58,238 nucleotides of DNA from the NCBI GenBank assembly GCA_030019435.1, contig JASEEV010000005.1, forward strand, positions 1 to 58,238. The letters run 5' to 3'. This DNA is from Methanocellales archaeon. GTDB lineage: Archaea > Halobacteriota > UBA148. Position 1 is the stretch's first letter. Each line of letters starts with the position of its first letter. Under the pieces are notes generated by a model. It had not been told where the DNA came from. It did not search any database and saw nothing but the letters and a program-made list of their open reading frames with translations. Shown here one piece after another: positions 4,901 through 57,618 of this stretch. The position numbers and the translations under genes are program-made.

Positions 4901-5548
4901 GTGTACAAGTTAATGGTCTTTGATATGGATGGAACGCTCCTTGATGGTAGGACCATTTACGTCTTAGCTAAAAAGCTGGGTTTTGAAGAACGTCTGCACA
5001 AGATCATCAGCTCAGATCTGCAGAAGTGTGAAAAGACGGTTGAGATTGCCAAGCTTCTCAGTGGACTGTCTGTTGCATGTTTCCTAGATGTATTCGATGA
5101 AATCCCCCTTCAGACCGGCGCCCAAAAAGTTATCGTTGCAGCCAGAAAAGCTGGTATGATGACGGTTATAGCGACGGATAGTTATCAACTGGCTGCGAAT
5201 CGGTTGGCAAAAAGACTCGGTATTGATAGAGCATTTGCAAACGAGTTGGAATTCAAAGCTGGAAAGATCACCGGTAGGATCAAGCTGAACAATGATAGAT
5301 TAGAGCCTCGCATGGCTGGTTGTAAGGTCCATTCCGTCTGCAAGCGAGATATTCTGCATAAACTATGTGATGAGCTGGGGATCGCTCCTGCTGAAAGTGT
5401 GGCAGTTGGCAACGCCCCTAATGATAAATGCATGATAGAGGATGCCGGCTTAGGAGTTGCATTCGAGGCACCGGCAGAGCTAAATGAAGTTGCCGATCTA
5501 ATATTGGACGATGACCTGAGCAAAATGTTGGATCACTTGAGGGAATGA
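4901..5548 (+). CDS. HAD-superfamily phosphatase, subfamily IB (SerB-like)
   Basis: DxDGT motif (VFDMDGTLLDG), ATDSY, and GNAPNDKCMIEDAGLGVAF. GTG at 4901 or ATG at 4913 could be the start. Confidence 0.7.
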   Translation: MYKLMVFDMDGTLLDGRTIYVLAKKLGFEERLHKIISSDLQKCEKTVEIAKLLSGLSVACFLDVFDEIPLQTGAQKVIVAARKAGMMTVIATDSYQLAANRLAKRLGIDRAFANELEFKAGKITGRIKLNNDRLEPRMAGCKVHSVCKRDILHKLCDELGIAPAESVAVGNAPNDKCMIEDAGLGVAFEAPAELNEVADLILDDDLSKMLDHLRE

Positions 5549-5549
5549 G

Positions 5550-6689
5550 ATGCACGACTTCGACCATACGGACTTTGAATTGCCCGATCTGCTTCAAGAG
5601 AAAGAGGATGCCAAGATATCGGTCATCATCCCCTCTTTTAAGGAGGAGGCCCTAGGAGGGGTGATCGCTAAGACCGGAGAACTGGTCAATGCAGGGCTAA
5701 TTGACGAGATTTTGATGGTGGAAGGCTCGACTCTCAACGGAGAAATTGACTACGAGACGATCAGAGTCGCTGCTGAAGCCGCCTTGGACTCGCTTGAAGA
5801 TTTTGATACCTTTAAGGTGATCCATCAAAGCCTGCCAGAAATATGCGCACTCTTGGAGACCAATGTGACACATGGGAAGGGGGATGCACTCTACAAGGGA
5901 GTTGCATGCTCTCAGGGGGATATTCTGGTTTTTCTTGATGCAGACATCATGAACATAGAGGAGCGCTTTGCCAGGGGCTTGGTAGGCCCAATCCTCTCCT
6001 TCGAGGAGATTCTTTTCTCAAAGGCTTATTACCATCGCCCCAAGTTCAAGATGAGGGGCAAGACGATCTTCGGCGGGCGAGTGACAAGGCTGTACATGCT
6101 CCCCATCCTGAAAATTTTGTGTCGGGTGTACAATGTCTTAGAGGGTCTGGAGGACTTCACATATCCGCTGAGCGGCGAAGTTGCGCTGACGAGAGAAGTT
6201 TTCGAGTCTCTAGCGATGCCACACCATTACGGCATTGAGATAGCGATGCTGATAGAAATCTATGAAAAATTTGGTTACGAAACATTCTCTCAGGTTGACC
6301 TGCGCGAGCACATTCATCACCATCGATCAGATAAAGCCCTTGCAGAGATGGTGGAGCAAATTACTAGGGCGCTGTTTTGGTTCGTGCGCGAGAACTTTTA
6401 CCTTGATTTTGGGGAGGAAATGAGGCGAAGGAGCATCATCGATCTGTATAGGTCTCGCGCCTTTGAGGGGCTGAAGACCGTAGACGATTTCAAGCGGATT
6501 GAGGCTTATAGGAGAAGCCTTGCTAGAGGCCTAAAAACGCTGCACGAGTTTGAGATGAGACTCCATCCCCCCTTCGCGAAACGCCAAACTATGAAAAACG
6601 CAGGGGCAAGCTTCACAAACGTACAGTCAAGTTCACTCATAAGATCGCGAGCCAGCTCTAGAAACGTAGAAGGATGCGCAGGTCGTTGA
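5550..6689 (+). CDS. GT-A fold glycosyltransferase, glucosyl-3-phosphoglycerate synthase-like
   Basis: KISVIIPSFKEE, HGKGDALYKG and VFLDADI (DxD) resemble GpgS/MpgS-type enzymes. The last ~40 aa are low-complexity and may be out of frame (see findings). Confidence 0.55.
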   Translation: MHDFDHTDFELPDLLQEKEDAKISVIIPSFKEEALGGVIAKTGELVNAGLIDEILMVEGSTLNGEIDYETIRVAAEAALDSLEDFDTFKVIHQSLPEICALLETNVTHGKGDALYKGVACSQGDILVFLDADIMNIEERFARGLVGPILSFEEILFSKAYYHRPKFKMRGKTIFGGRVTRLYMLPILKILCRVYNVLEGLEDFTYPLSGEVALTREVFESLAMPHHYGIEIAMLIEIYEKFGYETFSQVDLREHIHHHRSDKALAEMVEQITRALFWFVRENFYLDFGEEMRRRSIIDLYRSRAFEGLKTVDDFKRIEAYRRSLARGLKTLHEFEMRLHPPFAKRQTMKNAGASFTNVQSSSLIRSRASSRNVEGCAGR

Positions 6690-7950
6690 GATTCGTTCCC
6701 GTTCGTCCCGTCATGATCAGGTCACTCATCTTTTTGAAGAAGTCATATGAATCGTTGTTTTCTAGGAACACCATTGGGTTCAAGCCCAATTCTCCAGCTC
6801 GCCTGAGCGAGTTACCATCAGCTACCGCTCCTGCTGCATTCGTAAACCCATCGATCCCATCAGAATCGACAGAAGCGATGACAATTCTTTCCTCAGCGAT
6901 CTCATCCACACAGGCTAGAACGAACTCTTGGTTTGGTCCTCCCTTGCCTGAGCCTTTGACCTTGACGGTCGTCTCGCCCCCGCTGATCAGGCATGATACC
7001 TTCATCTTTTTGATAGCCTCTAGCTGTTTTGCCCCCTCCACTCTGGACTCTCCTGTAACGGCATCCAAGATCATAGATGAGTAGCCTAGCATCTGCGCTT
7101 TTTCTTTGGCGGCGGATAACATGATCTTGCTATCTAGAATTATCTCGTTATGGACTTTCTCGAAGACTGGATCTGCTGCCTTCGGCGTCTCCGCCAGATT
7201 GCCCGCTCGTCCTTCTTCTAATACCCTCCGGACATCTGGTGGCACTCTTGCCCAGAGATCATATTTTCGTAGTATCTCAACCGCATCTGCGTACGTGGAC
7301 TCATCCGGAGTGGTGGGTCCAGAGGCGATGACATCCGCTCTATTGCCCACGACATCGGATATGATCAAGCTTGCCAGTCTTGCTTGCACTCTGGCCGCTA
7401 ACTGACCCCCCTTGATCTGAGATAAGTGCTTGCGCACCACATTGATCTCATCGATTCTGGCTCCTGACCTGAGGAGGAGCTCATTTGTCTTTGCCGACGA
7501 TCTGATGGACACTCCTTGTTTGGGAAGTGTTAATAGGGCGGATCCTCCGCCTGAGACCAGGCATATGACGAGGTCATCGGACTTTGCCTTTTCAGCCAAC
7601 TTCAACAAACTTTTCGTCGCAAAGACGTTCTTTTCGGCTGGGACAGGGTGTTCCCCAATCAAAATCTTGATCCTTTTCGTTGCTTGAGGAGATGTGGTGA
7701 TGATCGCTCCATCACATATCCTGTCGCCCAGAATATTCTCCAGCTCAACGGCCATCTGTCCAGATGCCTTTCCAAATCCCACTACAAAAATCCGGTCCAC
7801 ACTCAGATCAAGATGTTCGATGGCATGCTGCAGAGCCCTTCTGGGATGAGCAGCCTGTAAGGCATGCTCCATAATGTCGAGAACATCAGCTCGCGCTTTT
7901 TTGAACTCGGTGGTAGCGTTTGACATCAGCTCCATCTTGTTCTGGATCAT
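6658..7950 (-). CDS. glycerate 2-kinase / hydroxypyruvate reductase family protein (DUF4147 + MOFRL)
   Basis: 430 aa with VVGFGKASGQMA, LVSGGGSALL, ISGGETTVKVKGSGKGGPNQE and TGTNLNDLRILL, typical of TtuD/GckA-type glycerate kinases. Confidence 0.8.
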   Translation of the reverse strand: MIQNKMELMSNATTEFKKARADVLDIMEHALQAAHPRRALQHAIEHLDLSVDRIFVVGFGKASGQMAVELENILGDRICDGAIITTSPQATKRIKILIGEHPVPAEKNVFATKSLLKLAEKAKSDDLVICLVSGGGSALLTLPKQGVSIRSSAKTNELLLRSGARIDEINVVRKHLSQIKGGQLAARVQARLASLIISDVVGNRADVIASGPTTPDESTYADAVEILRKYDLWARVPPDVRRVLEEGRAGNLAETPKAADPVFEKVHNEIILDSKIMLSAAKEKAQMLGYSSMILDAVTGESRVEGAKQLEAIKKMKVSCLISGGETTVKVKGSGKGGPNQEFVLACVDEIAEERIVIASVDSDGIDGFTNAAGAVADGNSLRRAGELGLNPMVFLENNDSYDFFKKMSDLIMTGRTGTNLNDLRILLRF

Positions 7951-36527: not shown

Positions 36528-37712
36528 GTGATCATATTCTCAAAGATCCTAGCCGACAAGGGGACGGTCTGGGATGCTCTACGAGCGAAAGAAATGGCTG
36601 CAGCAAAGGCTCCAGACGATCTCATCAGATTCTCATCTGAGACCAAGCCGGTGGTGATGTGGAACATCACACGAGCATGCAATCTTAGGTGCGCACACTG
36701 CTATGCCAGCGCAGCGCCGGGTCCGCATCCCGATGAATTGACGCTGGATGAGGGCATTCGATTTATTGATGAGCTCGCTGAGTTAGGGATTCCGATGCTC
36801 ATCTTTACCGGAGGTGAGCCGCTTGCGAGCAAGAACTTTTTTCCACTGGCATATCATGCAAAAGACGTTGGATTGCGCACCGTCATTTCGACGAATGGCA
36901 CCTTAATTACACCAGAGATCGCGCAAAAATTGAAGGATGCAGATATACGTTACGTAGGTGTAAGCATCGACGCAGCAACGCCAGGGATTCACGATAGGTT
37001 TAGGGGCGTCCAAGGCGCCTGGAAGATGGCGATGGATGGAATAAGGAATGCGATGGATGTTGGGTTGAGAACGGGCTTCAGGATCACCATCACCAAAGAT
37101 AACTGGAATCAGGTGCCTGCACTGCTGGATTTGGCAGTACAAATGAAGGTTCCACGTTTCTGCCTGTATCATCTTGTGCCAACCGGCAGAGGTGAAAACA
37201 TCGCAGCCCGGGATGTCACGAAGGCACAGAGGGTGGAAGTACTTAAGCATCTGTATGACAAAGCTATCGAGCTAAGGGATAAGGAGATCGAAATCCTAAG
37301 CACGGACTCTCCGATGGATGGCGTTTACATCCTTGAACGTCTTAAGAAAGAGGACCCAGAGCGCGTGGATGTTGTGAGGGAACTGCTGAAGATCTCAGGA
37401 GGATGTTCCATAGGGAATAAGGTTGCAAACGTCGATTATCTGGGCAACGTCAATCCATGTCATTTCGCTCCGCACAAGACCGTCGGAAATCTTCGGAAGC
37501 AGACGTTCAACGAAATCTGGAATGAAAGTCCGTGCGAGTTGCTGTGCGATTTGCGCAGACAGAAAGAATTGCTCAAAGGCAAATGCGGCATCTGCGATTA
37601 CAAGGACATCTGTGGGGGATGCAGGCAGAAGGCATGGTTCTTTAAGTGCGACTTCTTCGAGGAAGATCCGACCTGCATCTACAATCCAGAAACGAAGAGG
37701 ATTGAGGTGTAA
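36528..37712 (+). CDS. ahbC: radical SAM/SPASM heme-pathway enzyme, AhbC-like (didecarboxysiroheme to Fe-coproporphyrin III) - assignment tentative
   Basis: ITRACNLRCAHC, C-terminal GKCGICDYKDICGGCRQKA...PTCIYNP, 394 aa with an N-terminal extension. NirJ-like. Confidence 0.6.
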   Translation: MIIFSKILADKGTVWDALRAKEMAAAKAPDDLIRFSSETKPVVMWNITRACNLRCAHCYASAAPGPHPDELTLDEGIRFIDELAELGIPMLIFTGGEPLASKNFFPLAYHAKDVGLRTVISTNGTLITPEIAQKLKDADIRYVGVSIDAATPGIHDRFRGVQGAWKMAMDGIRNAMDVGLRTGFRITITKDNWNQVPALLDLAVQMKVPRFCLYHLVPTGRGENIAARDVTKAQRVEVLKHLYDKAIELRDKEIEILSTDSPMDGVYILERLKKEDPERVDVVRELLKISGGCSIGNKVANVDYLGNVNPCHFAPHKTVGNLRKQTFNEIWNESPCELLCDLRRQKELLKGKCGICDYKDICGGCRQKAWFFKCDFFEEDPTCIYNPETKRIEV

Positions 37713-37737
37713 AATCAGACCATAGTGGGATTGAAAT
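37708..37737 (+). CRISPR. solitary CRISPR-repeat-like 30-mer (copy 1)
   Basis: The sequence is TGTAAAATCAGACCATAGTGGGATTGAAAT. It ends in ATTGAAAT, the canonical archaeal 8-nt crRNA 5' tag sequence. It overlaps the ahbC stop codon, and a near-identical copy lies at 39553. Confidence 0.5.
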
Positions 37738-37778: not shown

Positions 37779-38135
37779 CTACTTTGCTGGGGCTTTTCGC
37801 AATTCTGTTATTCTTTTGCGTATGGTCTCAATCAGTTCCTTTCTTAGATCTTCTCCAGCAGCTTTTATTTTAGATATAGTTCTGGATAGTTTTGTGTCTC
37901 CTATGGTATCCGCGATCCATTTGGAGAAATCCCCTCGGCTCATGTGAAATTCTACTGATGGTAAGGGAAGCGTCTGTAGCTTCTCCATGAAATCTTGGAG
38001 GCTTAAAGCGGTTTGATAAAGCGGCTTATGTAGGGCTTCATAGAAGTGGAAGCCCTTACTCGTATCGCTTACCGGACTTAGGATCCTCTCAAACAATTTT
38101 TTCCTCGCGGTCCCCTTCCCTCTTTTGGACATCAC
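37779..38135 (-). CDS. DUF5752-family protein
   Basis: 118 aa. GFHFYEALHKPLYQTALSLQDFMEKLQTLPLPSVEFHMSRGDFSKWIADTIGDTKL fits DUF5752 as I recall it. Confidence 0.5.
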   Translation of the reverse strand: MMSKRGKGTARKKLFERILSPVSDTSKGFHFYEALHKPLYQTALSLQDFMEKLQTLPLPSVEFHMSRGDFSKWIADTIGDTKLSRTISKIKAAGEDLRKELIETIRKRITELRKAPAK

Positions 38136-38177
38136 TTCAGGCCCCCAATTTTTCTATTACTAACTTTAGAGATAATA

Positions 38178-39495
38178 AAACTTTTGCACTTTTCATCTTA
38201 ACGCCAACTGGGCTACTTTATCCACGCTCCCCAATTCTTGGAATCCATGTATGATCTGATGAACTCCTCGAGAAGCACTCCTTGACATTCCTGCAGATGT
38301 CACCCACGGTCTCCAGCTTCTCTCTGATCCATTGGGTGAGGGAGGACAAGCGGACACATTCTAGTAGGGAATAGACACGAAGACCAGGAACAGGTGTTTA
38401 ACTATTCCTTGGAGACTCCGCATCTGGTATTCGCCTAGTCCTATGTGCTGCTTGCCGTCCCTGTAGAACGTCTCTATCTTCCATCGCTGTCTGTAGGTAG
38501 CGATGATCTTCCGAATGCCCCAGTCCAGTCTGTTGGACACTAACACCATCGCCCCATCATCATTTATATTTTTCTTGAGCAGCACGAGCCTGACAACACC
38601 GAGGTTGGACATTGGAAGGTCTAACGCATGTGCATATTGATATCTCTCCTCATCGCCTTCTATCTCGATCTCCTCGATTCTCTCATATTCGTTGGATGAC
38701 ACCCTCTTGGTCAGCTCCCCTAAGCCGATCTCCTCATCCCGATGGATCACCTTGCGATTCATCTTTGCCCTTGTAACCCAGTCCATTCCCTCTCGATCGC
38801 ATCGATCAACTCCTTCGCAAAGTACCATGTGTCGAACGCCACGGTATTGGCAGAGACGCCGTTATCAACGGCAGAGTTTATCAAGTCGATGGCTATCTCT
38901 ATCTTGGTCTTGAACTCGACTCCCATGGGCTCTGCCAGCTCCTCCTTGATGTACATCCTCAGATCGACTGGATACTGCCCCCTCTCATCAGAGTAGTGCG
39001 TGGAGACGAAGTTATGTCCTAAGACAGATCTGCCCTCTGATTTGCTGAAGATGAGGCCAACTCCGCTCATGCACCTGCCCGTCTTGGAGATGAGCACATC
39101 GTCCAGGATCAGATATCCGTTTCTTCTGCTCCTAGTCCTCCTGCCATGTTGCAGAACTCTGAGCCTTGTCTTGTTCACCTCCTCAACGTCCCAAGGCGAT
39201 CGCGTCAGGAACCTGTTCAGAGAGCTCTGATGGCATCTGTCCACGTACAGATCGTTGATGTCGGTGATGTTCGACCCGCCCTTCTCGCTTGCTATAAGCC
39301 CCAGCACATATCTCTCGAAATGAGCGTATTGAGGCTTGCTGAACATGGACCTGTATGCTCCTAAAAACTTCGTGATATTATGCGGATTGACTATTGGAAT
39401 CGGCATTCCCATCCCCCATCTCATGATGATGGCGAGAGAAGGGTTTATATGTTTTCTGGTGAGATTTGAGATCCTCTCAAAAAGTGCAAAAGTTT
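38178..39495 (-). mobile_element. IS element of the IS4 superfamily (IS4/IS701/ISH-like), ~1.32 kb
   Basis: Perfect 16-bp terminal inverted repeats: AAACTTTTGCACTTTT at 38178-38193, and its reverse complement at 39480-39495. A flanking direct repeat AGAGATAAT lies at 38168-38176 and 39496-39504 (up to TTTAGAGATAAT if the overlap is counted). The DDE transposase inside carries Y(2)R(3)E(6)K. Confidence 0.8.
38218..39424 (-). pseudogene. DDE transposase, interrupted by at least two frameshifts
   Basis: The N-terminal part is ORF 38759..39424 and the middle part is ORF 38361..38828 (YRQRWKIETFYRDGKQ). The C-terminal ~47 aa (SLLECVRLSSLTQWIREKLETVGDICRNVKE...) are readable in the third frame down to the stop at 38218. 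Confidence 0.75.
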
Positions 39496-39552: not shown

Positions 39553-39582
39553 CGCTAAAATCAGACCATAGTGGAATTGGCA
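39553..39582 (+). CRISPR. solitary CRISPR-repeat-like 30-mer (copy 2, 3' end degenerate)
   Basis: The sequence is GCTAAAATCAGACCATAGTGGAATTGGCAT. Over 24 nt it has one mismatch to copy 1 (39555-39578 vs 37710-37733). It lies 3 nt from the dnaJ stop codon. Confidence 0.45.
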
Positions 39583-39585
39583 TCC

Positions 39586-49051: not shown

Positions 49052-49632
49052 TTGTGAAGGAACACTTGCAGGATGAAGTTGGGATTCATAAAATAGGCTG
49101 TCGGAGGTCGACAGGTTTAGTATGAATACATGGAAACAAAGGAGATGATCATGATGAGGAGGTGCAACTAAAATGATGATACTTATTACGTATATCATAA
49201 TTTTGTTGGGAATATTGTTGACTCTGCTCGGTGCTTTAAAGAGAAAAAACTTATGGAAAACTTCTGTTAGGCATAGGAATGACGATCACGATATTAGGAA
49301 TATATTTTATTTATGTTATTACCCTACCCTTGGGGGTAGATAAAATCATGGAATCTTCCGACAACCTAACTAAAAAATTTATTTTTGAACAGAAAGCACT
49401 TTCGTAGCAGAAAGCTTTTCAAGTAGAGCCCTCAAACCTTTATTACTTCACTCAGCACTTATGTTTTTATTTTAAATGGTCTGTAGGGTGACAGTTTCTT
49501 TATACACCCCATACCCCAAACAATACATGAGGTATTACAAACATGGTGTGCGCTTTCATCAAAATTTCGAATAAAAAATCAGAACTTTTAAGAAATCCTC
49601 TCTCAGAAAAGGATGGGAGAATAACTCGAAAG

Positions 49633-50385
49633 ATGCGCGCCAAAATATTTGTGAGAAAAATCTCAAAAGGGTTGCTACCATTCGATTATCAGTATGCCTT
49701 AGCTTCGATGTTATATGGGAAGCTCGCGCTTGGAAATATTCGTCTCGCAAACGAATCTCATTCTCACCAGGGCTTCAAGTTCTACAATTTTTCAAATCTG
49801 ATAATTCCGGATCGTCGCCCTTCACGCAAAGGATTGGCATTCGAGGATGCTCATTTCATCCTGACTTCGCCTGATGTCGAATTTGTCAGGAGCTTTGCAG
49901 AAGGTCTTTTGCAGGAGCAGGATTTTCATTTGTACGACCAGAATTTCATCGTGACCAAGATCGAAATCCTAGAGCAGAAGAAGCTTCCTAGTCCGTCCAC
50001 GTTCAGGACTATAAGCCCGATATTCATCAAAACGCTGCGAGAGGAGAATGGCGAGCTTAAGGAATGGGAACTCTATCCGATGGACGGAAAATTCCATGAA
50101 AATATTCACAAAAATCTTGTTGAGCGTTATACTGAGTACCATGGTGTGCCGCCCAAAAAAGATCACTTTCACATAACTCGCGTAAGAAGTTTTAAGGGAA
50201 AGCGCATTCTAATAGGCAGTGGCGAAAAAGCCACGCCCAGAAGATGCAGTCTGATGACTTTTGACCTAGAAGCCAGTCCTGAGTTGCTAAATTTTGCTTA
50301 CGACGCTGGCATAGGGGAAAAGAATGCGATGGGTTTTGGATGTGTGGAGGTTGTAGGAAACGGGAGAAACGATAATAACGAGTGA
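49633..50385 (+). CDS. cas6: CRISPR-associated endoribonuclease Cas6
   Basis: Duplicated ferredoxin-like pattern and a C-terminal Gly-rich loop GIGEKNAMGFGCVEV. The ATG at 49633 (MRAKIFV) is preferred over the ORF-track start at 49543. Confidence 0.8.
   Translation: MRAKIFVRKISKGLLPFDYQYALASMLYGKLALGNIRLANESHSHQGFKFYNFSNLIIPDRRPSRKGLAFEDAHFILTSPDVEFVRSFAEGLLQEQDFHLYDQNFIVTKIEILEQKKLPSPSTFRTISPIFIKTLREENGELKEWELYPMDGKFHENIHKNLVERYTEYHGVPPKKDHFHITRVRSFKGKRILIGSGEKATPRRCSLMTFDLEASPELLNFAYDAGIGEKNAMGFGCVEVVGNGRNDNNE
50320..50357 (+). repeat. cas6 3'-terminal segment, copy 1 of 3 (in situ, coding NAMGFGCVEVVG)
   Basis: AAGAATGCGATGGGTTTTGGATGTGTGGAGGTTGTAGG recurs at 51455 and 52151 with 3 mismatches each. 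Confidence 0.9.
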
Positions 50386-50412
50386 GTCGAAAGTTGTGTT
50401 AGAGGTGAAAAA

Positions 50413-50577
50413 GTGGACAAAACGCTAGAGGAGTTTTTGAAAAGCGAGAAAGTCAAGACCCTAAAACCAGACGAATGTGGTCTCATCTATGATGAGAAGA
50501 GGGGTTTGTTAATAGGGGTTTGCAATAAGGATGGAGAAATTAAGGTCACGTTGAAAAAGAAAATCGAGGAGATTTGA
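50413..50577 (+). CDS. hypothetical small protein (54 aa), below the ORF-track cutoff
   Basis: GTG start preceded by GAGGTGA. Its TGA stop directly abuts the TTG start of the next gene. Translation: VDKTLEEFLKSEKVKTLKPDECGLIYDEKRGLLIGVCNKDGEIKVTLKKKIEEI. Confidence 0.3.
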   Translation: MDKTLEEFLKSEKVKTLKPDECGLIYDEKRGLLIGVCNKDGEIKVTLKKKIEEI

Positions 50578-51018
50578 TTGTCGATTGTAGTGTCTAAGGG
50601 GACTATATTAGAGAAAATTAAAGGGCTCTTTAACGCTCACTCATGCATTGAACTTGCGTATCTGTTTGGCTCTATGGCTAATGAGAAAAGAGGAAAGTTG
50701 AGTGATGTAGACATAGGAGTATATCTCAATGATGCTTTGACCAAAGAGGAGAGGGATGAAGAGATGCTGAGCATCATCAGCGAGATCGTCTCGCTATTAA
50801 AAACGGATAAAGTAGATGTAGTGGTAATGAATGATGCACCTGTTTCCCTTAATTATGAGATAATAAAATGCAACGCCCCAATCTTCATGAGAGACGAAGG
50901 AAAAAGGGTTGATGTCGAGCAAACGATTTTGTCCAGATATCTAGATAGAAGGTATCATGAAAAGATGGCCTCTGACATATTCCTGAGAAAGGTGATGGAG
51001 GAAGGTATCACTTATTAG
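50578..51018 (+). CDS. minimal nucleotidyltransferase (MNT/MntA-like antitoxin)
   Basis: GS-x(n)-DxD motif (LFGSMANEKRGKLSDVDIGVY), 146 aa, TTG start. Confidence 0.75.
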   Translation: MSIVVSKGTILEKIKGLFNAHSCIELAYLFGSMANEKRGKLSDVDIGVYLNDALTKEERDEEMLSIISEIVSLLKTDKVDVVVMNDAPVSLNYEIIKCNAPIFMRDEGKRVDVEQTILSRYLDRRYHEKMASDIFLRKVMEEGITY

Positions 51019-51026
51019 GTGAGATT

Positions 51027-51449
51027 ATGGATGAAAAGGAAAAAATATCCCTCAAGTTACGATCGATGAAAAAGTATGTGAATTTTTTATCGTCAAAAAG
51101 AAACGTGTCAAGGGAAGAACTGGAAGGAAATTATGAGTTAAGAAGCGCTATCGAAAGGAACTTCCAGTTGGCGATAGAATCAACGCTTGATATAGGCGAG
51201 ATCATCATCTCTGTTGAGGGGTTTGAAAAGCCCGAGGATTACAAGAGCGTGATATTGATTCTTGGAAAGCACGATATTTTGCCAAAGGATTTTGCTGGAG
51301 AATTTGCATTAGCGGCTGGCTTTAGAAATGTCTTGGTTCACATGTATGAAGAAGTCGATATAAATATCCTCTATAATTACTTGCATAACAAGCTGGATGA
51401 TTTTGATAAGTTTGCGAAGTACATGGTTGAATACATCAGGTCGAAGTAA
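51027..51449 (+). CDS. HEPN-domain toxin, DUF86/HepT-like
   Basis: 140 aa with the Rx4-6H motif (FRNVLVHMYEEVD). It is paired with the upstream MNT. Confidence 0.75.
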   Translation: MDEKEKISLKLRSMKKYVNFLSSKRNVSREELEGNYELRSAIERNFQLAIESTLDIGEIIISVEGFEKPEDYKSVILILGKHDILPKDFAGEFALAAGFRNVLVHMYEEVDINILYNYLHNKLDDFDKFAKYMVEYIRSK

Positions 51450-51454
51450 ATGCA

Positions 51455-51489
51455 AATGCAATGGGCTTTGGGTGTGTGGAGGTTGTAGG
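51455..51489 (+). repeat. cas6 3'-terminal segment, copy 2 of 3
   Basis: AATGCAATGGGCTTTGGGTGTGTGGAGGTTGTAGG still encodes NAMGFGCVEVVG. Its TGA is embedded in a GTGA with the GTG start of the next gene. Confidence 0.85.
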
Positions 51490-51852
51490 GTGAGAGAAGA
51501 AGTATCAAATTGGTTGAAACGAGCTTTGAATGATCTGGATACCGCTAGATACAATTTAAACGGTAAAAGATATGATGCTGCTGCCTTTTTCGCCCAGCAA
51601 GCTGCAGAGAAAGCACTAAAAGCCCTGCAAATTAAAAGGTTAGGTAGGTTTGAGAGAACTCATGATTTGGTCCTCCTTGCTAAAAGTGTTAACAGTCCAA
51701 AAGAAATTATTCAGCTTTGTGGGATTGTAGCACCTTTTTACACTATAACGCGGTATCCTGATGTGGAGATCCCTTCTGATAAAAGCAAAATTTCTTCTGT
51801 CGTCGAGGCAAGTGAAAAGGTGGTGGCATGGGTAGAGCAAAACCTGAGATAA
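51490..51852 (+). CDS. HEPN domain protein (PF05168-like)
   Basis: GTG start 6 nt after GGAGGT. LKRALNDLDTARYNL...AAFFAQQAAEKALKAL...RTHDL, 120 aa. The ORF-track N-terminal extension (51397) runs through the repeat and the HepT 3' end. Confidence 0.7.
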   Translation: MREEVSNWLKRALNDLDTARYNLNGKRYDAAAFFAQQAAEKALKALQIKRLGRFERTHDLVLLAKSVNSPKEIIQLCGIVAPFYTITRYPDVEIPSDKSKISSVVEASEKVVAWVEQNLR

Positions 51853-52151
51853 TAGGTGTGCTGAAGAAATTTAAAGAAAGCATGCCAAAGAAATATAGGA
51901 TAGAAAAAATCATACTCTTTGGCTCGCAGGCAACGGGAAAAACAAAAGAATCTAGTGATATAGATCTTATAATAGTCAGCAGGGAAAGAAAAAAGTTGGA
52001 ACTGCTCCCAAAGCTTTATCATGAATGGCATTTGGTCCAGAAGATCGATTATCCGGTTGACTTCCTTTGCTACACGCCAGAAGAGTTTGAGAAAAAGAAA
52101 AAACAGATCACGATTGTAAGAGAAGCAGTAAAAGAAGGAATAGTGATATGA
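51828..52151 (+). CDS. minimal nucleotidyltransferase (MNT)
   Basis: IILFGSQATGKTKESSDIDLIIVS (GS...DxD), 107 aa. It overlaps the preceding HEPN gene. Confidence 0.75.
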   Translation: MGRAKPEIIGVLKKFKESMPKKYRIEKIILFGSQATGKTKESSDIDLIIVSRERKKLELLPKLYHEWHLVQKIDYPVDFLCYTPEEFEKKKKQITIVREAVKEGIVI

Positions 52152-52188
52152 AGAATGCGATGGGCTTTGGATGAGGGGAGGTTGTAGG
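52151..52188 (+). repeat. cas6 3'-terminal segment, copy 3 of 3
   Basis: AAGAATGCGATGGGCTTTGGATGAGGGGAGGTTGTAGG. The Cas6-tail frame is now broken by TGA (KNAMGFG*). It is followed by GTGAAAGTTG, as downstream of copy 1 (GTGAGTCGAAAGTTG). Confidence 0.85.
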
Positions 52189-52227
52189 GTGAAAGTTGCT
52201 ACATTATTTTACAGAGATGTGTTTTAA
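52189..52227 (+). other. 12-codon mini-ORF abutting the cas3 start (possible coupling leader)
   Basis: GTG AAA GTT GCT ACA TTA TTT TAC AGA GAT GTG TTT TAA is followed immediately by the cas3 ATG. The GTG lies 6 nt after the GGAGGT of repeat copy 3. Confidence 0.3.
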
Positions 52228-54468
52228 ATGAGTGTAGATGATGATTTCAGGTTGATAACAGGATTTAAAGAATTTTATCCTCACCAAAGAGAAACTATAG
52301 AATATCTTTCAAATGGCAAATCTGTAGTTCTTCGTGCTCCTACGGGCTCTGGAAAGTCAGAGGCGGTAGTTTTACCATTTCTAACAAATATGAACAAAAC
52401 TTTGCCCTCTCAGATGTTGTATTCTCTACCTGTTAGAACATTAGTTGACGACTTGAGCAGCAGATTTGCAAAGTATTCAAATGTTAAGTGGTTAAGTGTA
52501 GCAGGACATCATGGAAAAAGAATTGAAACCCCGTTATTTTATCCCCCAATAATTGTCACTACCATCGATCAAACTGTTGGCGCTTACGTTTGCACTCCGC
52601 TAAGCTTATCCCTTAGGCATGGAAACATTCCTGCTGGGGCTGTTAGTTCTGCTCTATTAGTGTTTGATGAAGTGCATACATTTGATCCCGAACGGGCTTT
52701 ACAATCAGCATTAATCTTGGCAAGGCATTCTAATAGACTGAACTTGCCTTTTGTTTTTATGTCAGCCACGATGCCGGACTCATTTATTAAAAAATTAGAG
52801 GGAATAATTGATTTCGAGAAAGTTGATGCAGATGAGAAGGACATCCCTATAAGAAAGAACAGAGATGTGTTGGTTTATTGGGAAGGTAGAAAATTAACGA
52901 GTAAAAACGTAATGGAGAAATACAACACATCGAAAGGTAAGACAATCGTTGTATGTAACACTGTAAGTAAAGCTCAAGAAATTTATAGGGAGTTAAAGGG
53001 AAAAGTTGATTGCGAACTCGTGTTACTTCATTCTAGATTTTTAGAGGAGGATCGGAATGAAAAAGAGGAAAAGTTAAAGGAGATATTTAAAAAGGGCTCC
53101 GAAAGAATAGGTATTCTCGTATCAACCCAAGTTATAGAGGTCGGTTTAGATATTTCTTGCGATACTATGCTTACAGAATTGAGTCCTATTGACTCTCTGA
53201 TTCAAAGAGCTGGAAGGTGCGCCAGATGGGGTGGAAAAGGACGTTTGTATGTGTATGACGTCGAAAAACCAAATCCATATAGGAAAGATCTAGTAGATGA
53301 AACAAGGAAGAAAATAAAAGAGATTGACGGGAGGAAACTTAGTTGGGAAGCTGAAAAAGCTCTTGTTAATGATATTCTAGGAGAATATGTTGGAGAATGG
53401 CTGAACATAGAAAATACGGCAAGAATATTAAACACTCTCGCTCAAGCCGCATTTGAAGGAAATAGAAAACTAACAGAAGATGCTGTAAGAGAGACCTTTT
53501 CATGTGAAATAAGCATCCATGATGATCCAAGCACTCTTGAGAATGCATATGGATTGAAAAAAATAAAAGTACACGCTGGGGTTCTAAGAAAGTTTTTCAA
53601 GGATTCGGAGCCAATAGTGTGGAAATTAGTAGATAATAATATAATCTCTGATGAATCTCCTATCATTATCCCTCGGAAAATTTCTAGTGCTGAGGAAATT
53701 TTGCCTTACGGGTTCTACATAATCCATCCAAACTACATTTCATACGATAAGCATAATGGATTATTATTTGAGCCACGAGGAGAGAGCTTTGAGTGTATGG
53801 GGAGGGGAGAGCGTAGAGCACCCGAGTATGAATACAAAAGAGAGACTTGGGTTGAACACTCTATGAGAACTCTAGAAGTTTTTGAGAGTATTTTTTTACC
53901 TCGCTATAAATTTGCTATCGATAAGTTTGCAAAAGCATGGAAAGTAGAATTTAGCGAGTTTTTAGAAGAATTAAATTTGGTGATGTTGCTCCATGACATT
54001 GGGAAGTTGAATAAGGAATGGCAAAAGAAAGTTGGATGGCAAGAAGGTGAAGAACCACTAGCGCACTCTGGAGAGGGAAGCATTGAAGGTCTTCCATCAC
54101 ATGCTCCTATATCTGCTTATGCTTTAAGTCGTATATTTTATAAATGGGGTACAGAAATTGGTCAAGCGTTTTACTTTGCCTTAGCACATCACCACAGTGT
54201 GAGAGCCTCAAAAATGTCTAAATATAGACTTATCGATAACTGGGAAAGTTATCTGAGGCAATTATCAATATCAAATGTTTATGTCGAAGGGATCCACTCA
54301 AGAGGAGAGGGGAAGTTATTTGGAAAGTTCCCAGAGCTAATTAATCATGAGAAACTTTATCACACGTATACTTTTATTTCAAGGCTATTAAGATTGTCCG
54401 ATAGAACGGCTACAGGGGGAGGTGAGGATGCAGTATTACGTTATGAAAACTGGCATGGAAATGTTTGA
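52228..54468 (+). CDS. cas3: Cas3 helicase-nuclease with the HD domain at the C-terminus (Cas3'-Cas3'' fusion order)
   Basis: Walker A APTGSGKSE, DEVH box (LVFDEVHTF), SATMP, QRAGRCAR. The C-terminal part then has HD motifs (WVEHS, LLHDIGKL, LAHHHS, LSDRTAT). Confidence 0.88.
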   Translation: MSVDDDFRLITGFKEFYPHQRETIEYLSNGKSVVLRAPTGSGKSEAVVLPFLTNMNKTLPSQMLYSLPVRTLVDDLSSRFAKYSNVKWLSVAGHHGKRIETPLFYPPIIVTTIDQTVGAYVCTPLSLSLRHGNIPAGAVSSALLVFDEVHTFDPERALQSALILARHSNRLNLPFVFMSATMPDSFIKKLEGIIDFEKVDADEKDIPIRKNRDVLVYWEGRKLTSKNVMEKYNTSKGKTIVVCNTVSKAQEIYRELKGKVDCELVLLHSRFLEEDRNEKEEKLKEIFKKGSERIGILVSTQVIEVGLDISCDTMLTELSPIDSLIQRAGRCARWGGKGRLYVYDVEKPNPYRKDLVDETRKKIKEIDGRKLSWEAEKALVNDILGEYVGEWLNIENTARILNTLAQAAFEGNRKLTEDAVRETFSCEISIHDDPSTLENAYGLKKIKVHAGVLRKFFKDSEPIVWKLVDNNIISDESPIIIPRKISSAEEILPYGFYIIHPNYISYDKHNGLLFEPRGESFECMGRGERRAPEYEYKRETWVEHSMRTLEVFESIFLPRYKFAIDKFAKAWKVEFSEFLEELNLVMLLHDIGKLNKEWQKKVGWQEGEEPLAHSGEGSIEGLPSHAPISAYALSRIFYKWGTEIGQAFYFALAHHHSVRASKMSKYRLIDNWESYLRQLSISNVYVEGIHSRGEGKLFGKFPELINHEKLYHTYTFISRLLRLSDRTATGGGEDAVLRYENWHGNV

Positions 54469-55498
54469 TGCCTGTAGAGCTTATGGTCTTGGATTAGTGC
54501 TGGATACCCTTAGGGAGGATGACGAAAAAGAGGTAATTGTAAGTAATGTTGGAATATATTACTCTGTTGAAGGGCCTGAAATTGATAAATCTGCCGTTAA
54601 TAGACTAATGCACCTCCTTGACCCAAATTTAGCGTGGAAAGAAACCTTTCTAACTATACAAAGAAGTCGAAGAGGCGACCTTAAGAAGGCGACAAAAAAT
54701 AAGATCGATAAGATAGGAGATACACTTAGGGATGACGTAGATCAGATACTTAGAAAGTATGAAAAACCAGTCCCAGTTGAATTTTCCTCATCAAAAGGGG
54801 AAACACTCTATCAATCTATGGAGCTAGCTGCGACTAAGGGCTATAGAGTTCCTATAAGATCTAAAGTGGCGTATACTGAAGGCTCATCTATTAAGGTACC
54901 AGCCGAGGATTGGGCTCTCGCAGCTTTAGGCGAGGCTCACTTCACCGTATGGAAGGGTGGAGTGGCATTAGCTACTATTATTCCTCAACCAGAGAAGGTA
55001 ATGGTTATGCATTGCCGAGACATTCGAAATAGTATTGATCAAACTAATGTAAATAGGGTTAGCACATTAACCACACTCGCTCATATGGCGGTGCTTTTAA
55101 TGAGTGAAATAAGAAATAGGAAAAGAAGTGGCGACCCTTTCATAGACAAATTTTCTTCCTTGATTTATGGTGCAATGAGACGGACAGGAGGTCAATTGAA
55201 ACCTGCTAGTGGAGGCATCTTTCCTTTAGATTTTCTTTACAATCTGATGGAGAGTGACCCAGAGATATCAGGTGAAATTTTTGAAATGTGGGATCATGTC
55301 TTTAGGATTCGAAATGCAAAGGGTCGTTCACTCGAAGATCTTTCACTTTCTCTCTCCGAATTTATTGCACATCCAATGATGGAGACGCAGGAAAACTATC
55401 TTAAAGTCCATCTAAGATACTTAATAAAGGATGATGTGAAAATTAGAGCATACACAGAAGAGTGTATAAAAGAGGTGATGAAAAATGTCAGAAGTTAA
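54428..55498 (+). CDS. cas8a: Cas8-like large subunit, small form (Cas8a2/Csa4-like by size and position)
   Basis: ~356 aa ORF overlapping the cas3 end and followed by small-subunit, cas7 and cas5 genes. I rely on context and size, not on a recognised motif. Confidence 0.5.
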   Translation: MQYYVMKTGMEMFDACRAYGLGLVLDTLREDDEKEVIVSNVGIYYSVEGPEIDKSAVNRLMHLLDPNLAWKETFLTIQRSRRGDLKKATKNKIDKIGDTLRDDVDQILRKYEKPVPVEFSSSKGETLYQSMELAATKGYRVPIRSKVAYTEGSSIKVPAEDWALAALGEAHFTVWKGGVALATIIPQPEKVMVMHCRDIRNSIDQTNVNRVSTLTTLAHMAVLLMSEIRNRKRSGDPFIDKFSSLIYGAMRRTGGQLKPASGGIFPLDFLYNLMESDPEISGEIFEMWDHVFRIRNAKGRSLEDLSLSLSEFIAHPMMETQENYLKVHLRYLIKDDVKIRAYTEECIKEVMKNVRS

Positions 55499-55841
55499 AT
55501 TAGAAGAAATTTTTAAAAATGAAGCAATTGAGGATTTCGGAGATGCCCTTAGAAAGGCTATTCGAATGGAAGATATTCAGGATTATGCATCGTTAGTAGA
55601 ACTAGAGTATGTGGAGTCAAAGGAAGGGTTTGCAGAAACCATAAAGAAGTTTTTGAGACGCTACCATACCCATGCAAAGAAGCTGCATCTTAGAATACCA
55701 AAAGAGGAAAGCCTTAATAGTATTATGGGATTGGTGGATAAATATGGTGTAAAACTTGTGAGGGCTGCTCTAATTTCGCACGCTTTAGTAAAATCTTCTA
55801 GAGAAGAAGAATCTGGAGAAAGAACTGAAGGAGGAGAGTAG
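55485..55841 (+). CDS. cas11: putative Cascade small subunit (Cas11/Csa5-like)
   Basis: 118-aa predicted helical protein between the large subunit and cas7. It overlaps cas8 by 14 nt and ends 1 nt before cas7. Confidence 0.45.
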   Translation: MSEVKLEEIFKNEAIEDFGDALRKAIRMEDIQDYASLVELEYVESKEGFAETIKKFLRRYHTHAKKLHLRIPKEESLNSIMGLVDKYGVKLVRAALISHALVKSSREEESGERTEGGE

Positions 55842-55842
55842 G

Positions 55843-56889
55843 ATGGAAAAGAAAAGTAAAGAAACAGTGTATGAGATTGCAATTTTAGGAAGGGCAACAT
55901 GGAACTTGCATTCTTTGAGCAATGAGGGGACCGTGGGGAATGTAACAGAACCAAGGACTATCATCCTTGCAGATGGAACGCAGACAGATGGTGTTTCTGG
56001 TGAAATACTAAAACATATGCATGCCGAATATATGTGGGCTCTTGAAAACAACAAAGATAACTTCTGTGAAGTATGTAAGAAGTTCCGCCCAGAAAGGGCT
56101 GATGGAAATCCTAAGGTGAGAAAAAAATCTAATGCAGAGGATGCAGTAAAAGAGGCTATTGAATGCGAACTTTGCGATGTTCATGGATTCCTTGTACAAC
56201 GGCCACCCGCTACTCGAGAGTCTACAATAGAATTCGGCTGGGCTGTCGGTATTCCATATGTTCAAAGGAGCATCCATGTGCACTCAAGACACGCATTACA
56301 TGAGGCGTATCTTGAAATTGATGAAGAAAGAGAAGAAGGTAAATGGGAAAAAGAAAAGTGTAGTGTTCGAGAGTGCAAGACAGAAGAAAGTGAAAGTAAG
56401 CTCTATAAAGTGAAGAACAGATGGTATTGTGAAACGCATCTCCCTGTTCGTACGCCTCAAATGCTCTATCATCGTCCCACACGCTCGGGAGCCTACGGAG
56501 TAGTCTCAGTGTTTCAACCGTGGAGGATAGGGTTGAATAACGTGAACTTTATATATGATATCAATGACGATGATAAAAGAAAATTTAGGTATAAGCTGGC
56601 ACTAAAAGCGTACCAGGCAATGTTCATGAGACCAGAAGGGGCGATGACAAGTACGAGATTACCGCATACTGAGAACTTTGAGGGCGTAATTGTTGTTTCA
56701 AAGACAAACTTTCCAGTACCAGTGATCAGTCCGCTTAAGGATGATTACAAAGAGCAAATAAACAGTATTAAAGCAACTATAGACAGTGGAAATAGCATCG
56801 ATATAATAAAATTCGATAGCATTTCGAACTTCGTAGAGAAGATGGACGGTTTATTAGATAAGGGCCCATATAAAGTTGAATTCGAATAG
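55843..56889 (+). CDS. cas7: Cas7 backbone protein (Csa2/DevR-Cst2 family)
   Basis: N-terminal ILGRATWNLHSLSNEGTVGNVTEPRT...DGVSGEILKHMH matches the Csa2/DevR pattern (xLxSLNxxGxxGN ... SGexlKH). Confidence 0.8.
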   Translation: MEKKSKETVYEIAILGRATWNLHSLSNEGTVGNVTEPRTIILADGTQTDGVSGEILKHMHAEYMWALENNKDNFCEVCKKFRPERADGNPKVRKKSNAEDAVKEAIECELCDVHGFLVQRPPATRESTIEFGWAVGIPYVQRSIHVHSRHALHEAYLEIDEEREEGKWEKEKCSVRECKTEESESKLYKVKNRWYCETHLPVRTPQMLYHRPTRSGAYGVVSVFQPWRIGLNNVNFIYDINDDDKRKFRYKLALKAYQAMFMRPEGAMTSTRLPHTENFEGVIVVSKTNFPVPVISPLKDDYKEQINSIKATIDSGNSIDIIKFDSISNFVEKMDGLLDKGPYKVEFE

Positions 56890-56937: not shown

Positions 56938-57618
56938 ATGGTCTGGTTTAAGGCAGAATATGAATTTGGTAGCCTATTCTCCTATAGAATGCCCGACTTC
57001 TCCTCCCAATATGCTTTATCCTTGCCTTTACCAGGTCCTTCTACAATAAAATTAGCAACAGTCGCAACTGCCATAGAAAGCACGGGAAATCTGAAATATG
57101 GGAAGGAAATTTTTGAACTTATAAAGAATGCTGAAATTAAAATAGGGATGCCAAAGAGAATTGGAATATCTAACGTATTGATTAAAAGGTTGAAGAAGAA
57201 GAAAGATAAAAAGGAATTAGAAACAACTTTTGGCATCCGTGGTTATGTGCATTTTCTCGAACCAATCGAAATTTATGTAAATGCAAAAGAGTATGCGAGG
57301 GATATTGGAAATTTATTAAGAAGGATCAGACGATTTGGTACTTCTGATTCTCTTGTCTGCTGCAAAAGTCCTATTAGCGAGGAAGAGCCACCAGAAAATT
57401 GTATCGAGGCTGTTGATCATTTTCCTGAAAAAGCTGAAAGAAACATGCTCGTAGTTCCTGTAAAAGACTTAAATCAAGATGAAAAAGTCAGGTTCGAGCA
57501 TGTAAATCCCTATGATGAAGCCCCAAGTAAAGACGTTTTCGTAAGGAAGTTCTACTTCATTCCCATTCTCAATTCACGAGAAGGGAAAAATTGGACAGTT
57601 TATGAAGTAGCTCCTTGA
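56938..57618 (+). CDS. cas5: Cas5 (Cas5a-like)
   Basis: N-terminal FSYRMPDFSSQYALSLPLPGPSTIKLATVATAI (Cas5 P-x-PS-T-hydrophobic-G/A motif), 226 aa, located after cas7. Confidence 0.7.
   Translation: MVWFKAEYEFGSLFSYRMPDFSSQYALSLPLPGPSTIKLATVATAIESTGNLKYGKEIFELIKNAEIKIGMPKRIGISNVLIKRLKKKKDKKELETTFGIRGYVHFLEPIEIYVNAKEYARDIGNLLRRIRRFGTSDSLVCCKSPISEEEPPENCIEAVDHFPEKAERNMLVVPVKDLNQDEKVRFEHVNPYDEAPSKDVFVRKFYFIPILNSREGKNWTVYEVAP

Follow-up and report, generated by a model that had tools for sequence, protein, structure and literature searches.

An operon in which the 3' end of cas6 is present three times raises the question of how the additional copies arose and what has kept them. The operon lies in a 58,238-nucleotide (nt) stretch of DNA from a Methanocellales archaeon (GenBank assembly GCA_030019435.1, contig JASEEV010000005.1, positions 1 to 58,238 of the forward strand; hereafter the window). 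Between cas6 and cas3 it carries two cassettes encoding predicted toxin-antitoxin (TA) pairs of HEPN-family RNases and minimal nucleotidyltransferases (MNT), namely cassette A (orf54-MNT-HepT) and a second cassette (HEPN-MNT). A 35-nt core, AATGCGATGGGYTTTGGRTGWGKGGAGGTTGTAGG, is found on the plus strand at 50323-50357, 51455-51489 and 52154-52188, with one or two mismatches to the consensus and three or four to the other copies. Scanning the 58 kb with up to three mismatches allowed returned exactly these three sites, and no site was returned in 100 shuffles. The triplication described in an initial annotation, which was made from the sequence alone, is thus borne out, as is the closeness of the copies, which it gave as 3 mismatches.

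We refer to these copies as tails 1 to 3. Tail 1 (50320-50357) is the natural, in-situ end of cas6; it codes for the G-rich loop KNAMGFGCVEVVG (gene end ...GEKNAMGFGCVEVVG) and holds a Shine-Dalgarno (SD)-like GGAGGT. Tail 2 (51455-51489) is a non-coding remnant of the cas6 end whose translation reads NAMGFGCVEVVG, and tail 3 (52151-52188) is a remnant with an in-frame stop (KNAMGFG*GEVVG). An upstream AAG is common to tails 1 and 3 (from 50320 and 52151), and a downstream GTGA to tails 2 and 3. In both remnants GGAGGT lies upstream of the GTG of that GTGA at a distance of 6 nt. Behind tail 2 (GTGA at 51490-51493) the GTG at 51490 is the start codon of the HEPN gene, and behind tail 3 the GTG at 52189 opens a 12-codon leader open reading frame (ORF; VKVATLFYRDVF, 52189-52227) whose TAA abuts the cas3 ATG at 52228. 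The initial annotation had read these junctions in the same way: the loop and TGA of copy 2 embedded in the GTGA that starts HEPN, the short ORF leading from copy 3 to cas3, and the 6-nt spacing all agree with the sequence, the last for copies 2 and 3. Its concern that the triplication might be a misassembly is answered by related loci. Two of these (L001 and L002) are on contigs that end shortly past cas6, which would suggest that assemblers have difficulty here. However, the window copies differ by 3-4 bases, zero chance matches are expected and the same design recurs in five independent assemblies (L003, L005, L085, L086 and L205), so we regard an assembly artefact or chance similarity as extremely improbable.

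We consider it likely that the three copies represent one functional cas6 3' end and two recombination scars, and that the scars have been kept because they offer the next gene an SD sequence (GGAGGT) and an overlapping start. This reading draws on 160 loci obtained from Cas6-based scans of genome and metagenome contigs, with relatives of the window-type Cas3 collected using two-sequence alignment. Two of these loci have an empty site. In L004, cas6 ends ...GGAGGTCGTAGAGTGA and the GTG of that GTGA starts cas8b; in L002, the cas6 tail leads straight to the ATG of a cas8b of another type (MKIEIPIYHDVWMDNGV). Where the window-type effector module is native, cas3 follows cas6 directly, by a stop/start overlap in L184, L185 and L177 and after a gap of ~70 nt in L175. 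The HEPN start behind tail 2 occupies the same position as the cas8b start of the empty site (GGAGGT-N6-GTG), and in L161 a HEPN gene starts at the in-situ cas6 GTGA. These loci include the cas6-GTGA-HEPN and cas6-cas3 junctions for which the initial annotation had proposed a survey. The empty sites, L161 and the matching geometry likewise support its view of the repeat as a portable junction of cas6 tail, SD and start. A putative partial tail before cas8b in L161 matched at only 11 of 12 positions and was not counted.

The filled sites differ in the number and kind of their cassettes. In L205 (JGI Ga0370355_1001929, 5214-7900) the order is cas6-orf54-MNT-HepT-tail-HEPN-MNT-tail, the same as in the window; identity to window positions 49561-52187 is ~89% at the nucleotide level and the homology stops exactly at the end of tail 3, behind which L205 has a cas8b-head remnant, a single CRISPR repeat and then cupin, helicase and PolB genes. 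L003 begins with cas6, a degraded orf54, MNT, HepT, tail 2 and ~75 nt of an L002-type cas8b head, and continues with a different HEPN, a C-terminal MNT fragment, a shortened tail 3 and a third cas8b type. In L005 (Cas6 56% identical), cas6 is followed by orf52, ORF126, a HEPN-like ORF, the last ~12 codons of an MNT gene, a tail, GTGA and cas8b. L085 and L086 have five and four tails, respectively, bounding four cassettes: orf54-MNT-HepT, HEPNc-MNTc, HEPNb-MNTb, and orf54'-ORF123-HEPNd-ORF47 with an MNT remnant. A cas6 3' fragment stands after each cassette in the window, L003, L005, L085, L205, L191 and L192. The inserts are flanked by direct repeats of the cas6 end, the right-hand repeat retaining the native junction to the downstream gene. 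Junction homology, whose absence from related loci would have spoken against the initial annotation, is thus present at both empty and filled sites, and the varied cassettes, each followed by a tail, support its proposal that TA modules were recombined in at this place. The exact junction of an MNT stop with a tail is rarer: across species-representative genomes it was found among archaea only in the L005 contig, and the eight bacterial matches are about the number expected by chance for a 19-base pattern in 596 Gb.

The tails themselves record where they came from. Tail 2 of L003 is identical to the in-situ tail of L004 and is followed by the ~75 nt of L002-type cas8b head, so that it has the look expected of a resident tail, whereas the in-situ tail of L003 has other substitutions and the extension of cassette A. 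Tail 4 of L085 is followed by a cas6 C-terminal extension (GNRGGRNDNNE) and orf54, the left end of the orf54 cassette, and was therefore once an in-situ cas6 end. Behind tail 2 of L003, tail 3 of L085 and tail 3 of L205 lie the first 19-25 codons of a foreign cas8b, in each case not the downstream gene of the same locus; these tails therefore derive from other cas6-cas8b junctions, in support of the earlier suggestion that other cas6 loci were a source.

Sequence identity along the loci is mosaic. Between the window and L085, cas6 and cassette A are ~90-100% identical, the HEPN-MNT slot after tail 2 shows only 45-60% nucleotide identity (61% between the MNT proteins), and the last ~130 nt, comprising the MNT 3' end and tail, return to ~87%. 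Within flanks that are otherwise ~90% identical, the HEPN-MNT slot has been exchanged. The last ~110 nt of MNT2 in the window (from ~52040) and tail 3 form a nucleotide block that is kept across different MNT cassettes; it ends several of them, and stumps of 20-35 nt are found in L005 and at tail 5 of L085. Near-identical cas6 genes precede either I-B modules with at least three cas8b types or the I-A-like module of the window. The window cas6 is 88-92% identical to cas6 of I-B loci, and its Cas6 protein is 88-92% identical to that of Methanocellales metagenome-assembled genomes (MAGs), its closest relatives; relatives of its I-A-like module are scattered over many archaeal and bacterial MAGs.

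These data bear on a competing explanation, in which the tails arose by local tandem duplication, for example through replication slippage, with TA genes landing later and selection for coupling keeping the copies. Selection on the SD and start would account for their retention in that case as well, and a whole MNT gene is duplicated on either side of the HEPN-MNT insert in L047. Local duplication does not, however, account for tails that bear foreign cas8b heads missing downstream in the same locus, for the same cassette and tail in loci with different downstream modules, or for a mosaic identity that indicates import. We judge it improbable, if the least so of the alternatives.

The closest homologues of HEPN2, the predicted toxin of the second pair, are 62-74% identical, come from Hadarchaeaceae and other MAGs, and lie with their own MNT among housekeeping genes. 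At the nucleotide level they match the window from the HEPN start codon through the MNT stop and no further, and no flanking repeats were found at those non-CRISPR sites. The TA pair is an ordinary mobile module. Because its closest relatives lie in non-CRISPR neighbourhoods and share only this interval with the window, we favour the view that every insertion left the resident cas6 end behind as a tail over the view that the tail belongs to a self-mobile element. Cassette A appears to be composite. The orf54 family (7 clusters in a set of 5.8 billion proteins; AlphaFold model of low confidence, pLDDT 63) in its native setting heads a three-gene module, orf54-ORF123-HEPN, in L005, L082, L085 and L206, and is also found outside CRISPR loci (L202, L206). 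The first 8 codons of MNT1 (MSIVVSKG) are common to ORF123-type genes; this comparison indicates that the MNT1 N-terminus is a chimeric joint and that the MNT-HepT pair replaced the last two genes of the module after codon 8.

The absence of tails at the non-CRISPR sites also counts against an integron-like, site-specific system, in which the tail would be the attachment site at which a dedicated recombinase inserts circular TA cassettes. TA cassettes are common integron cargo. The cassettes at cas6 are tightly spaced and putatively promoter-less, lie in one orientation behind a single anchor, each end in a recurrent element of ~35 nt, number up to four in L085, and are arranged in an order that suggests the newest is beside the anchor gene. 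In contrast to integrons, there is no intI-type recombinase, attC-like hairpin or fixed crossover, and the element is the anchor gene's own 3' end. No recombinase or integrase gene was found near the window locus (upstream, HTH, TiaS, PdxS and PdxT; downstream, cas genes) or among the called genes of L205. No inverted repeat was found in or around the window tails, two of which also lack a significant fold, and the left edge of the tail differs among cassette types. The length of the duplication varies, from 35 nt in the window to ~37 nt in L192 and ~100 nt in L191, and tail 2 of L003 extends ~75 nt into a cas8b head. This variation also disfavours a fixed staggered cut. Integrative elements that target the 3' ends of genes, such as tRNA genes, come with an integrase gene and a defined att core; the cas6 inserts are like them in being flanked by a direct repeat of the target 3' end that leaves the gene intact, and differ in lacking an integrase and in the varying length of the repeat.

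A recurrent element between the cistrons of a cas6-led operon might instead act as RNA, as a site for Cas6 binding or cleavage or as a CreA-like degenerate repeat that processes or regulates the polycistronic mRNA, and CreTA RNA modules do occupy the cas6-cas8 interval of type I-B systems (PMC8501985). The tail is not similar to the relatives' CRISPR repeat (GTTAAAATCAGACCATAGTGGGATTGAAAT), the best ungapped match being 11/30, and repeat-like sequences in the window are confined to 37.7 and 39.6 kb. Fold z-scores for the three tails are 0.36, 0.30 and -2.0, two of the three not significant; the tail has no Rfam match; and tails decay outside the SD part. The same dissimilarity to the repeat argues against off-target integration by Cas1-Cas2 that duplicates a repeat-length target as in spacer acquisition. 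The 35-nt duplication is indeed near the length of a CRISPR repeat, but the inserts are 0.7-1.1 kb long with ORF-precise cassette edges, and the duplications measure 35, ~37 or ~100 nt depending on the locus. No tail was found in viral contigs. The results for repeat similarity, folding, Rfam families, inverted repeats, integrases and viral contigs lower the weight of these three explanations: the integron-like system is unlikely, the RNA element slightly more so, and Cas1-Cas2 integration barely credible.

We therefore return to recombination at the cas6 end, for which the following course may be proposed. The cas6 end would be a hot spot because its G-rich loop (GEKNAMGFG) keeps the first ~20 nt near-identical in widely diverged cas6 genes, and because it carries the start of the next gene: the SD GGAGGT, a 6-nt spacer and a start that overlaps the cas6 stop (GTGA or ATGA). 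Incoming DNA carrying a cas6 and a HEPN-family TA pair would recombine at its left end by homology within cas6. Its right end would be joined within the resident cas6 end or immediately ahead of it, through either short homology or an illegitimate event; AATGC after HepT and AAG after MNT are possible microhomologies at these joins. The outcome would be an intact cas6, a new cassette and the old tail, still joined to the downstream gene by its native start junction, and the survivors would be those that keep an intact cas6 together with an SD and start for the next gene. Repeated rounds could stack cassettes, the newest probably beside cas6. Once a cassette has a tail on its right, double crossovers, with one exchange in cas6 or a tail to its left and the other in a tail, a cas8b head or the 3' end of an MNT gene to its right, could move, swap or delete it. 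Later homologous exchange between tails, and between the conserved MNT 3' ends, could also swap, delete or import both cassettes and whole effector modules.

The scars would then persist because each feeds ribosomes to the next ORF, the HEPN gene after tail 2 and the 12-codon leader after tail 3. Tail 2 would supply the HEPN gene with GGAGGT-N6-GTG in the geometry of the L004 cas6-cas8b junction. The SD of tail 3 may couple translation of cas3 through the leader ORF; no other SD-like sequence precedes the cas3 ATG. All genes of the operon lie on one strand with overlaps or gaps of 0-40 nt, and we infer from this tight packing, which leaves no room for obvious terminators, that they are co-transcribed. 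Most plausibly, the cassettes are promoter-less passengers of the cas operon that, by analogy with CreTA in the equivalent position and with TA biology in general, would make the cas6-proximal part of the locus addictive or add abortive infection linked to expression of the cas operon, and displaced modules probably stay expressed. L205, where cas6 and both cassettes remain next to a lone repeat, fits this role.

Similar arrangements recur in more distant loci. Of the 82 de-duplicated loci with enough flank, 13 have HEPN/MNT-type genes in the first 1.5 kb downstream of cas6 (11 on the cas6 strand), compared with none of 418 control windows from other parts of these loci (Fisher p = 3e-11), an enrichment that is indicative only, the queries having come from junction cassettes. 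Methanoperedens-type loci have one to three HEPN-MNT pairs after cas6. In two cas3-first loci whose Cas6 is only 32-35% identical, the duplications lie directly before cas3: in L191 the cas6 end is duplicated over ~100 nt (80/98) around an MNT fragment, and in L192 over ~37 nt (33/36) around an MNT stump, an MNT gene and a truncated HEPN gene. Three HEPN-type pairs precede cas3 in L186, and L181 has one pair and a degenerate tail. In L082 an orf54-ORF127-HEPN cassette has direct repeats of ~65 nt on either side and a cas8b-head remnant ahead of a window-type cas3. In L047 (10750-13412) and related Methanoperedens I-B loci we also noted, in many cases, a protein of ~149 amino acids without a Pfam family encoded between cas6 and cas8b; in L047, fragments of this protein and the whole duplicated MNT gene flank the HEPN-MNT inserts. 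A further side observation comes from ANME-2 and Methanosarcinales loci, where a fragment coding for the first ~60 residues of Cas6 lies 0.4-0.9 kb upstream of the full cas6 (L006, 598-777; L010, 3781-3960; L019, 9155-9334) and could be a duplication of the same kind at the 5' end.

Taken to its full extent, the proposal would make the cas6 3' end a recombinase-independent landing pad that builds integron-like stacks of HEPN-family TA cassettes in type I cas operons of several archaeal lineages, each tail copy serving as the ribosome-binding and start site of its successor, with expression from the cas6 promoter and a locus made addictive. We put this forward only tentatively and think it less probable than not. 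Several points weigh against reading the tails as products of recombination at cas6. A homologous tract of 35 nt is short for homologous recombination. The order of events at the tails is one reconstructed from the sequences of a handful of loci. In L085 the most distal tail is the least diverged from the in-situ tail, unlike the simple neutral ageing of a chronological stack, so that gene conversion or en-bloc import has to be invoked. Neither blastn nor tblastn returned a homologue of the 12-codon ORF, whose origin is undetectable, and the enrichment downstream of cas6 may carry an ascertainment bias.

Among known systems, the closest analogue is provided by the orphan toxin-immunity arrays of Rhs and contact-dependent inhibition (CDI) loci, in which displaced modules keep a fragment of the main gene that serves later recombination (PMC3967940). 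There too, toxin/protector pairs are stacked downstream of a main gene with a fragment of that gene kept per module, and in either system the newest module would be the one at the main gene, with older ones further downstream. The difference is that the Rhs/CDI toxin is the variable C-terminus of the main protein, whereas here the toxin is a separate ORF and Cas6 ends before the cassettes; the anchor here is moreover the gene of a CRISPR RNA endonuclease, and its fragment, of 25-100 nt, doubles as a ribosome-binding and start region. CreTA, a CRISPR-regulated RNA toxin-antitoxin that guards cas genes from the cas6-cas8 interval of type I-B systems (PMC8501985, PMC12737573), occupies the same slot, directly after cas6 and before the first effector gene, and has a likely addiction role in common with the cassettes. 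In contrast, CreTA consists of RNAs that rely on degenerate CRISPR repeats and Cascade, and the pairs described here are HEPN/MNT proteins; no repeat-like sequence was found in the window between 49 and 52.3 kb and a link to Cascade regulation is not evident. In characterised type VII HEPN-MNT (HepT/MntA) systems, the MNT neutralises the HEPN toxin by AMPylation (PMC7641770, PMC11586414). Both window cassettes likewise pair an adjacent or overlapping HEPN RNase and MNT, in the two known gene orders, and their TA function is predicted on this basis. The pairs are thus not new; the novelty lies in where they recur, at the cas6 junction and between copies of the cas6 end. The initial annotation had known of no description of TA cassettes bounded by cas6 tails, and our literature search likewise turned up no account of a duplicated cas6 end or of HEPN/MNT cassettes placed between cas6 and either cas8 or cas3. 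HEPN-MNT pairs, TA modules in defence loci and recombination scars are known parts; what appears to be new is that the cas6 end serves as the anchor, that the scar doubles as a start region and that the cassettes stack up within cas operons.

The junction behind cas6 may thus be an overlooked site of modular evolution in CRISPR-Cas systems, at which TA cassettes accumulate and effector modules are exchanged, I-B modules of the cas8b type and I-A-like, cas3-first modules being found behind near-identical cas6 genes. Extra copies of the codons for the cas6 G-rich loop offer a searchable signature of such events. In methanogen-related archaea, protein TA pairs embedded in the operon may stabilise the cas genes or tie abortive infection to CRISPR expression, much as CreTA does by means of RNAs. 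If the cas6 end does act as a landing pad, the stacks would be a protein-level counterpart of CreTA and could outlive the CRISPR system, as in L205. The arrangement also holds a hint for design, in that a 35-nt gene end with an SD and an overlapping start would be a natural splice point at which cistrons can be added with coupling retained. L205 itself has lost its effector and adaptation genes and kept cas6 and the TA pairs, with a MazE/PIN pair just upstream.

The gene content of the window locus is that of a type I CRISPR-Cas operon, with cas6, cas3, cas8, cas11, cas7 and cas5 together on the plus strand. The cas6 gene (250 amino acids; Pfam Cas_Cas6_C and Cas6_I-A, NCBIfam TIGR01877) extends from 49633 to 50385; its start had been placed at 49543 in the initial annotation and is corrected here to 49633, which is conserved in relatives. 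Its last 9 codons (GNGRNDNNE) run into the left end of cassette A. That cassette comprises orf54 (50413-50577), a small protein without a Pfam, NCBIfam or PADLOC match; MNT1 (50578-51018; Pfam Polbeta, 1.3e-20), the predicted HepT antitoxin; and, 8 nt further on, the HepT-like HEPN RNase, a predicted toxin (51027-51449; Pfam HepT-like, 1e-29). The second cassette comprises HEPN2, the predicted toxin with a GTG start (51490-51852; Pfam HEPN, 2.4e-27), and MNT2, its predicted antitoxin (51828-52151; Pfam NTP_transf_2, 7.4e-15), which overlap by 25 nt. By eye, the translations contain the HEPN Rx4-6H motif (RNVLVH in HepT, RFERTH in HEPN2) and the GSx10DxD motif of MNT proteins (GSMANEKRGKLSDVDIG and GSQATGKTKESSDIDLI). 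The Pfam assignments (Cas6, MNT, HepT, HEPN, MNT, Cas3) agree with the initial annotation in giving two HEPN/MNT cassettes of opposite gene order between cas6 and cas3; its description of the first as a pair alone does not hold, as orf54 had been overlooked. Downstream of the leader ORF lie cas3 (52228-54468; N-terminal helicase and C-terminal HD nuclease by Pfam and NCBIfam) and a type I-A-like effector module made up of cas8a (54422-55498; PADLOC Cas8a, 1e-63), cas11a (55485-55841; PADLOC Cas11a, 1.5e-42), cas7/Csa2 (55843-56889; Pfam DevR, NCBIfam Cas7/Csa2) and cas5a (56938-57618; NCBIfam Cas5a). In L003, a 26-codon remnant with 70% identity to the C-terminus of the window Cas5 lies downstream of that locus's own cas3.

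The G+C content of the locus is 38-42%, compared with 45-52% upstream, where the genes are of housekeeping type (a helix-turn-helix (HTH) regulator, TiaS, PdxS and PdxT), and no CRISPR array was found beside the operon in the window. Two short matches precede cas6. The sequence AAAAATCAGAAC at 49572-49600, within ~90 nt that are conserved upstream of the gene, matches the first third of the CRISPR repeat (AAAATCAGACC) and could be a degenerate repeat or due to chance. At 49482-49499, ~130 nt ahead of the cas6 start codon, is an 18-nt sequence, TGTAGGGTGACAGTTTCT, that matches the right edge of tail 3 and its flank (52183-52200) at 16/18 positions; it lies ~60 nt to the left of where homology to relatives begins, is not kept in relatives and is borderline for chance.

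The 30-nt repeat of the relatives is itself found in the window as two orphan copies 10-12 kb upstream of cas6, at 37708-37737 (2 mismatches) and 39554-39583 (4 mismatches), every other position having at least 11 mismatches in 30. The two copies flank a DUF5752 ORF (37779-38135, minus strand) and a frameshifted DDE transposase gene (38361-39424, minus strand) with terminal inverted repeats near 38175 and 39500, and the first abuts the stop of a radical-SAM/SPASM gene (36528-37712). Because the orthologue of this gene in L002 is followed by cas6 within ~75 nt, the site of the orphan repeats may be the relic of a former CRISPR-cas site.

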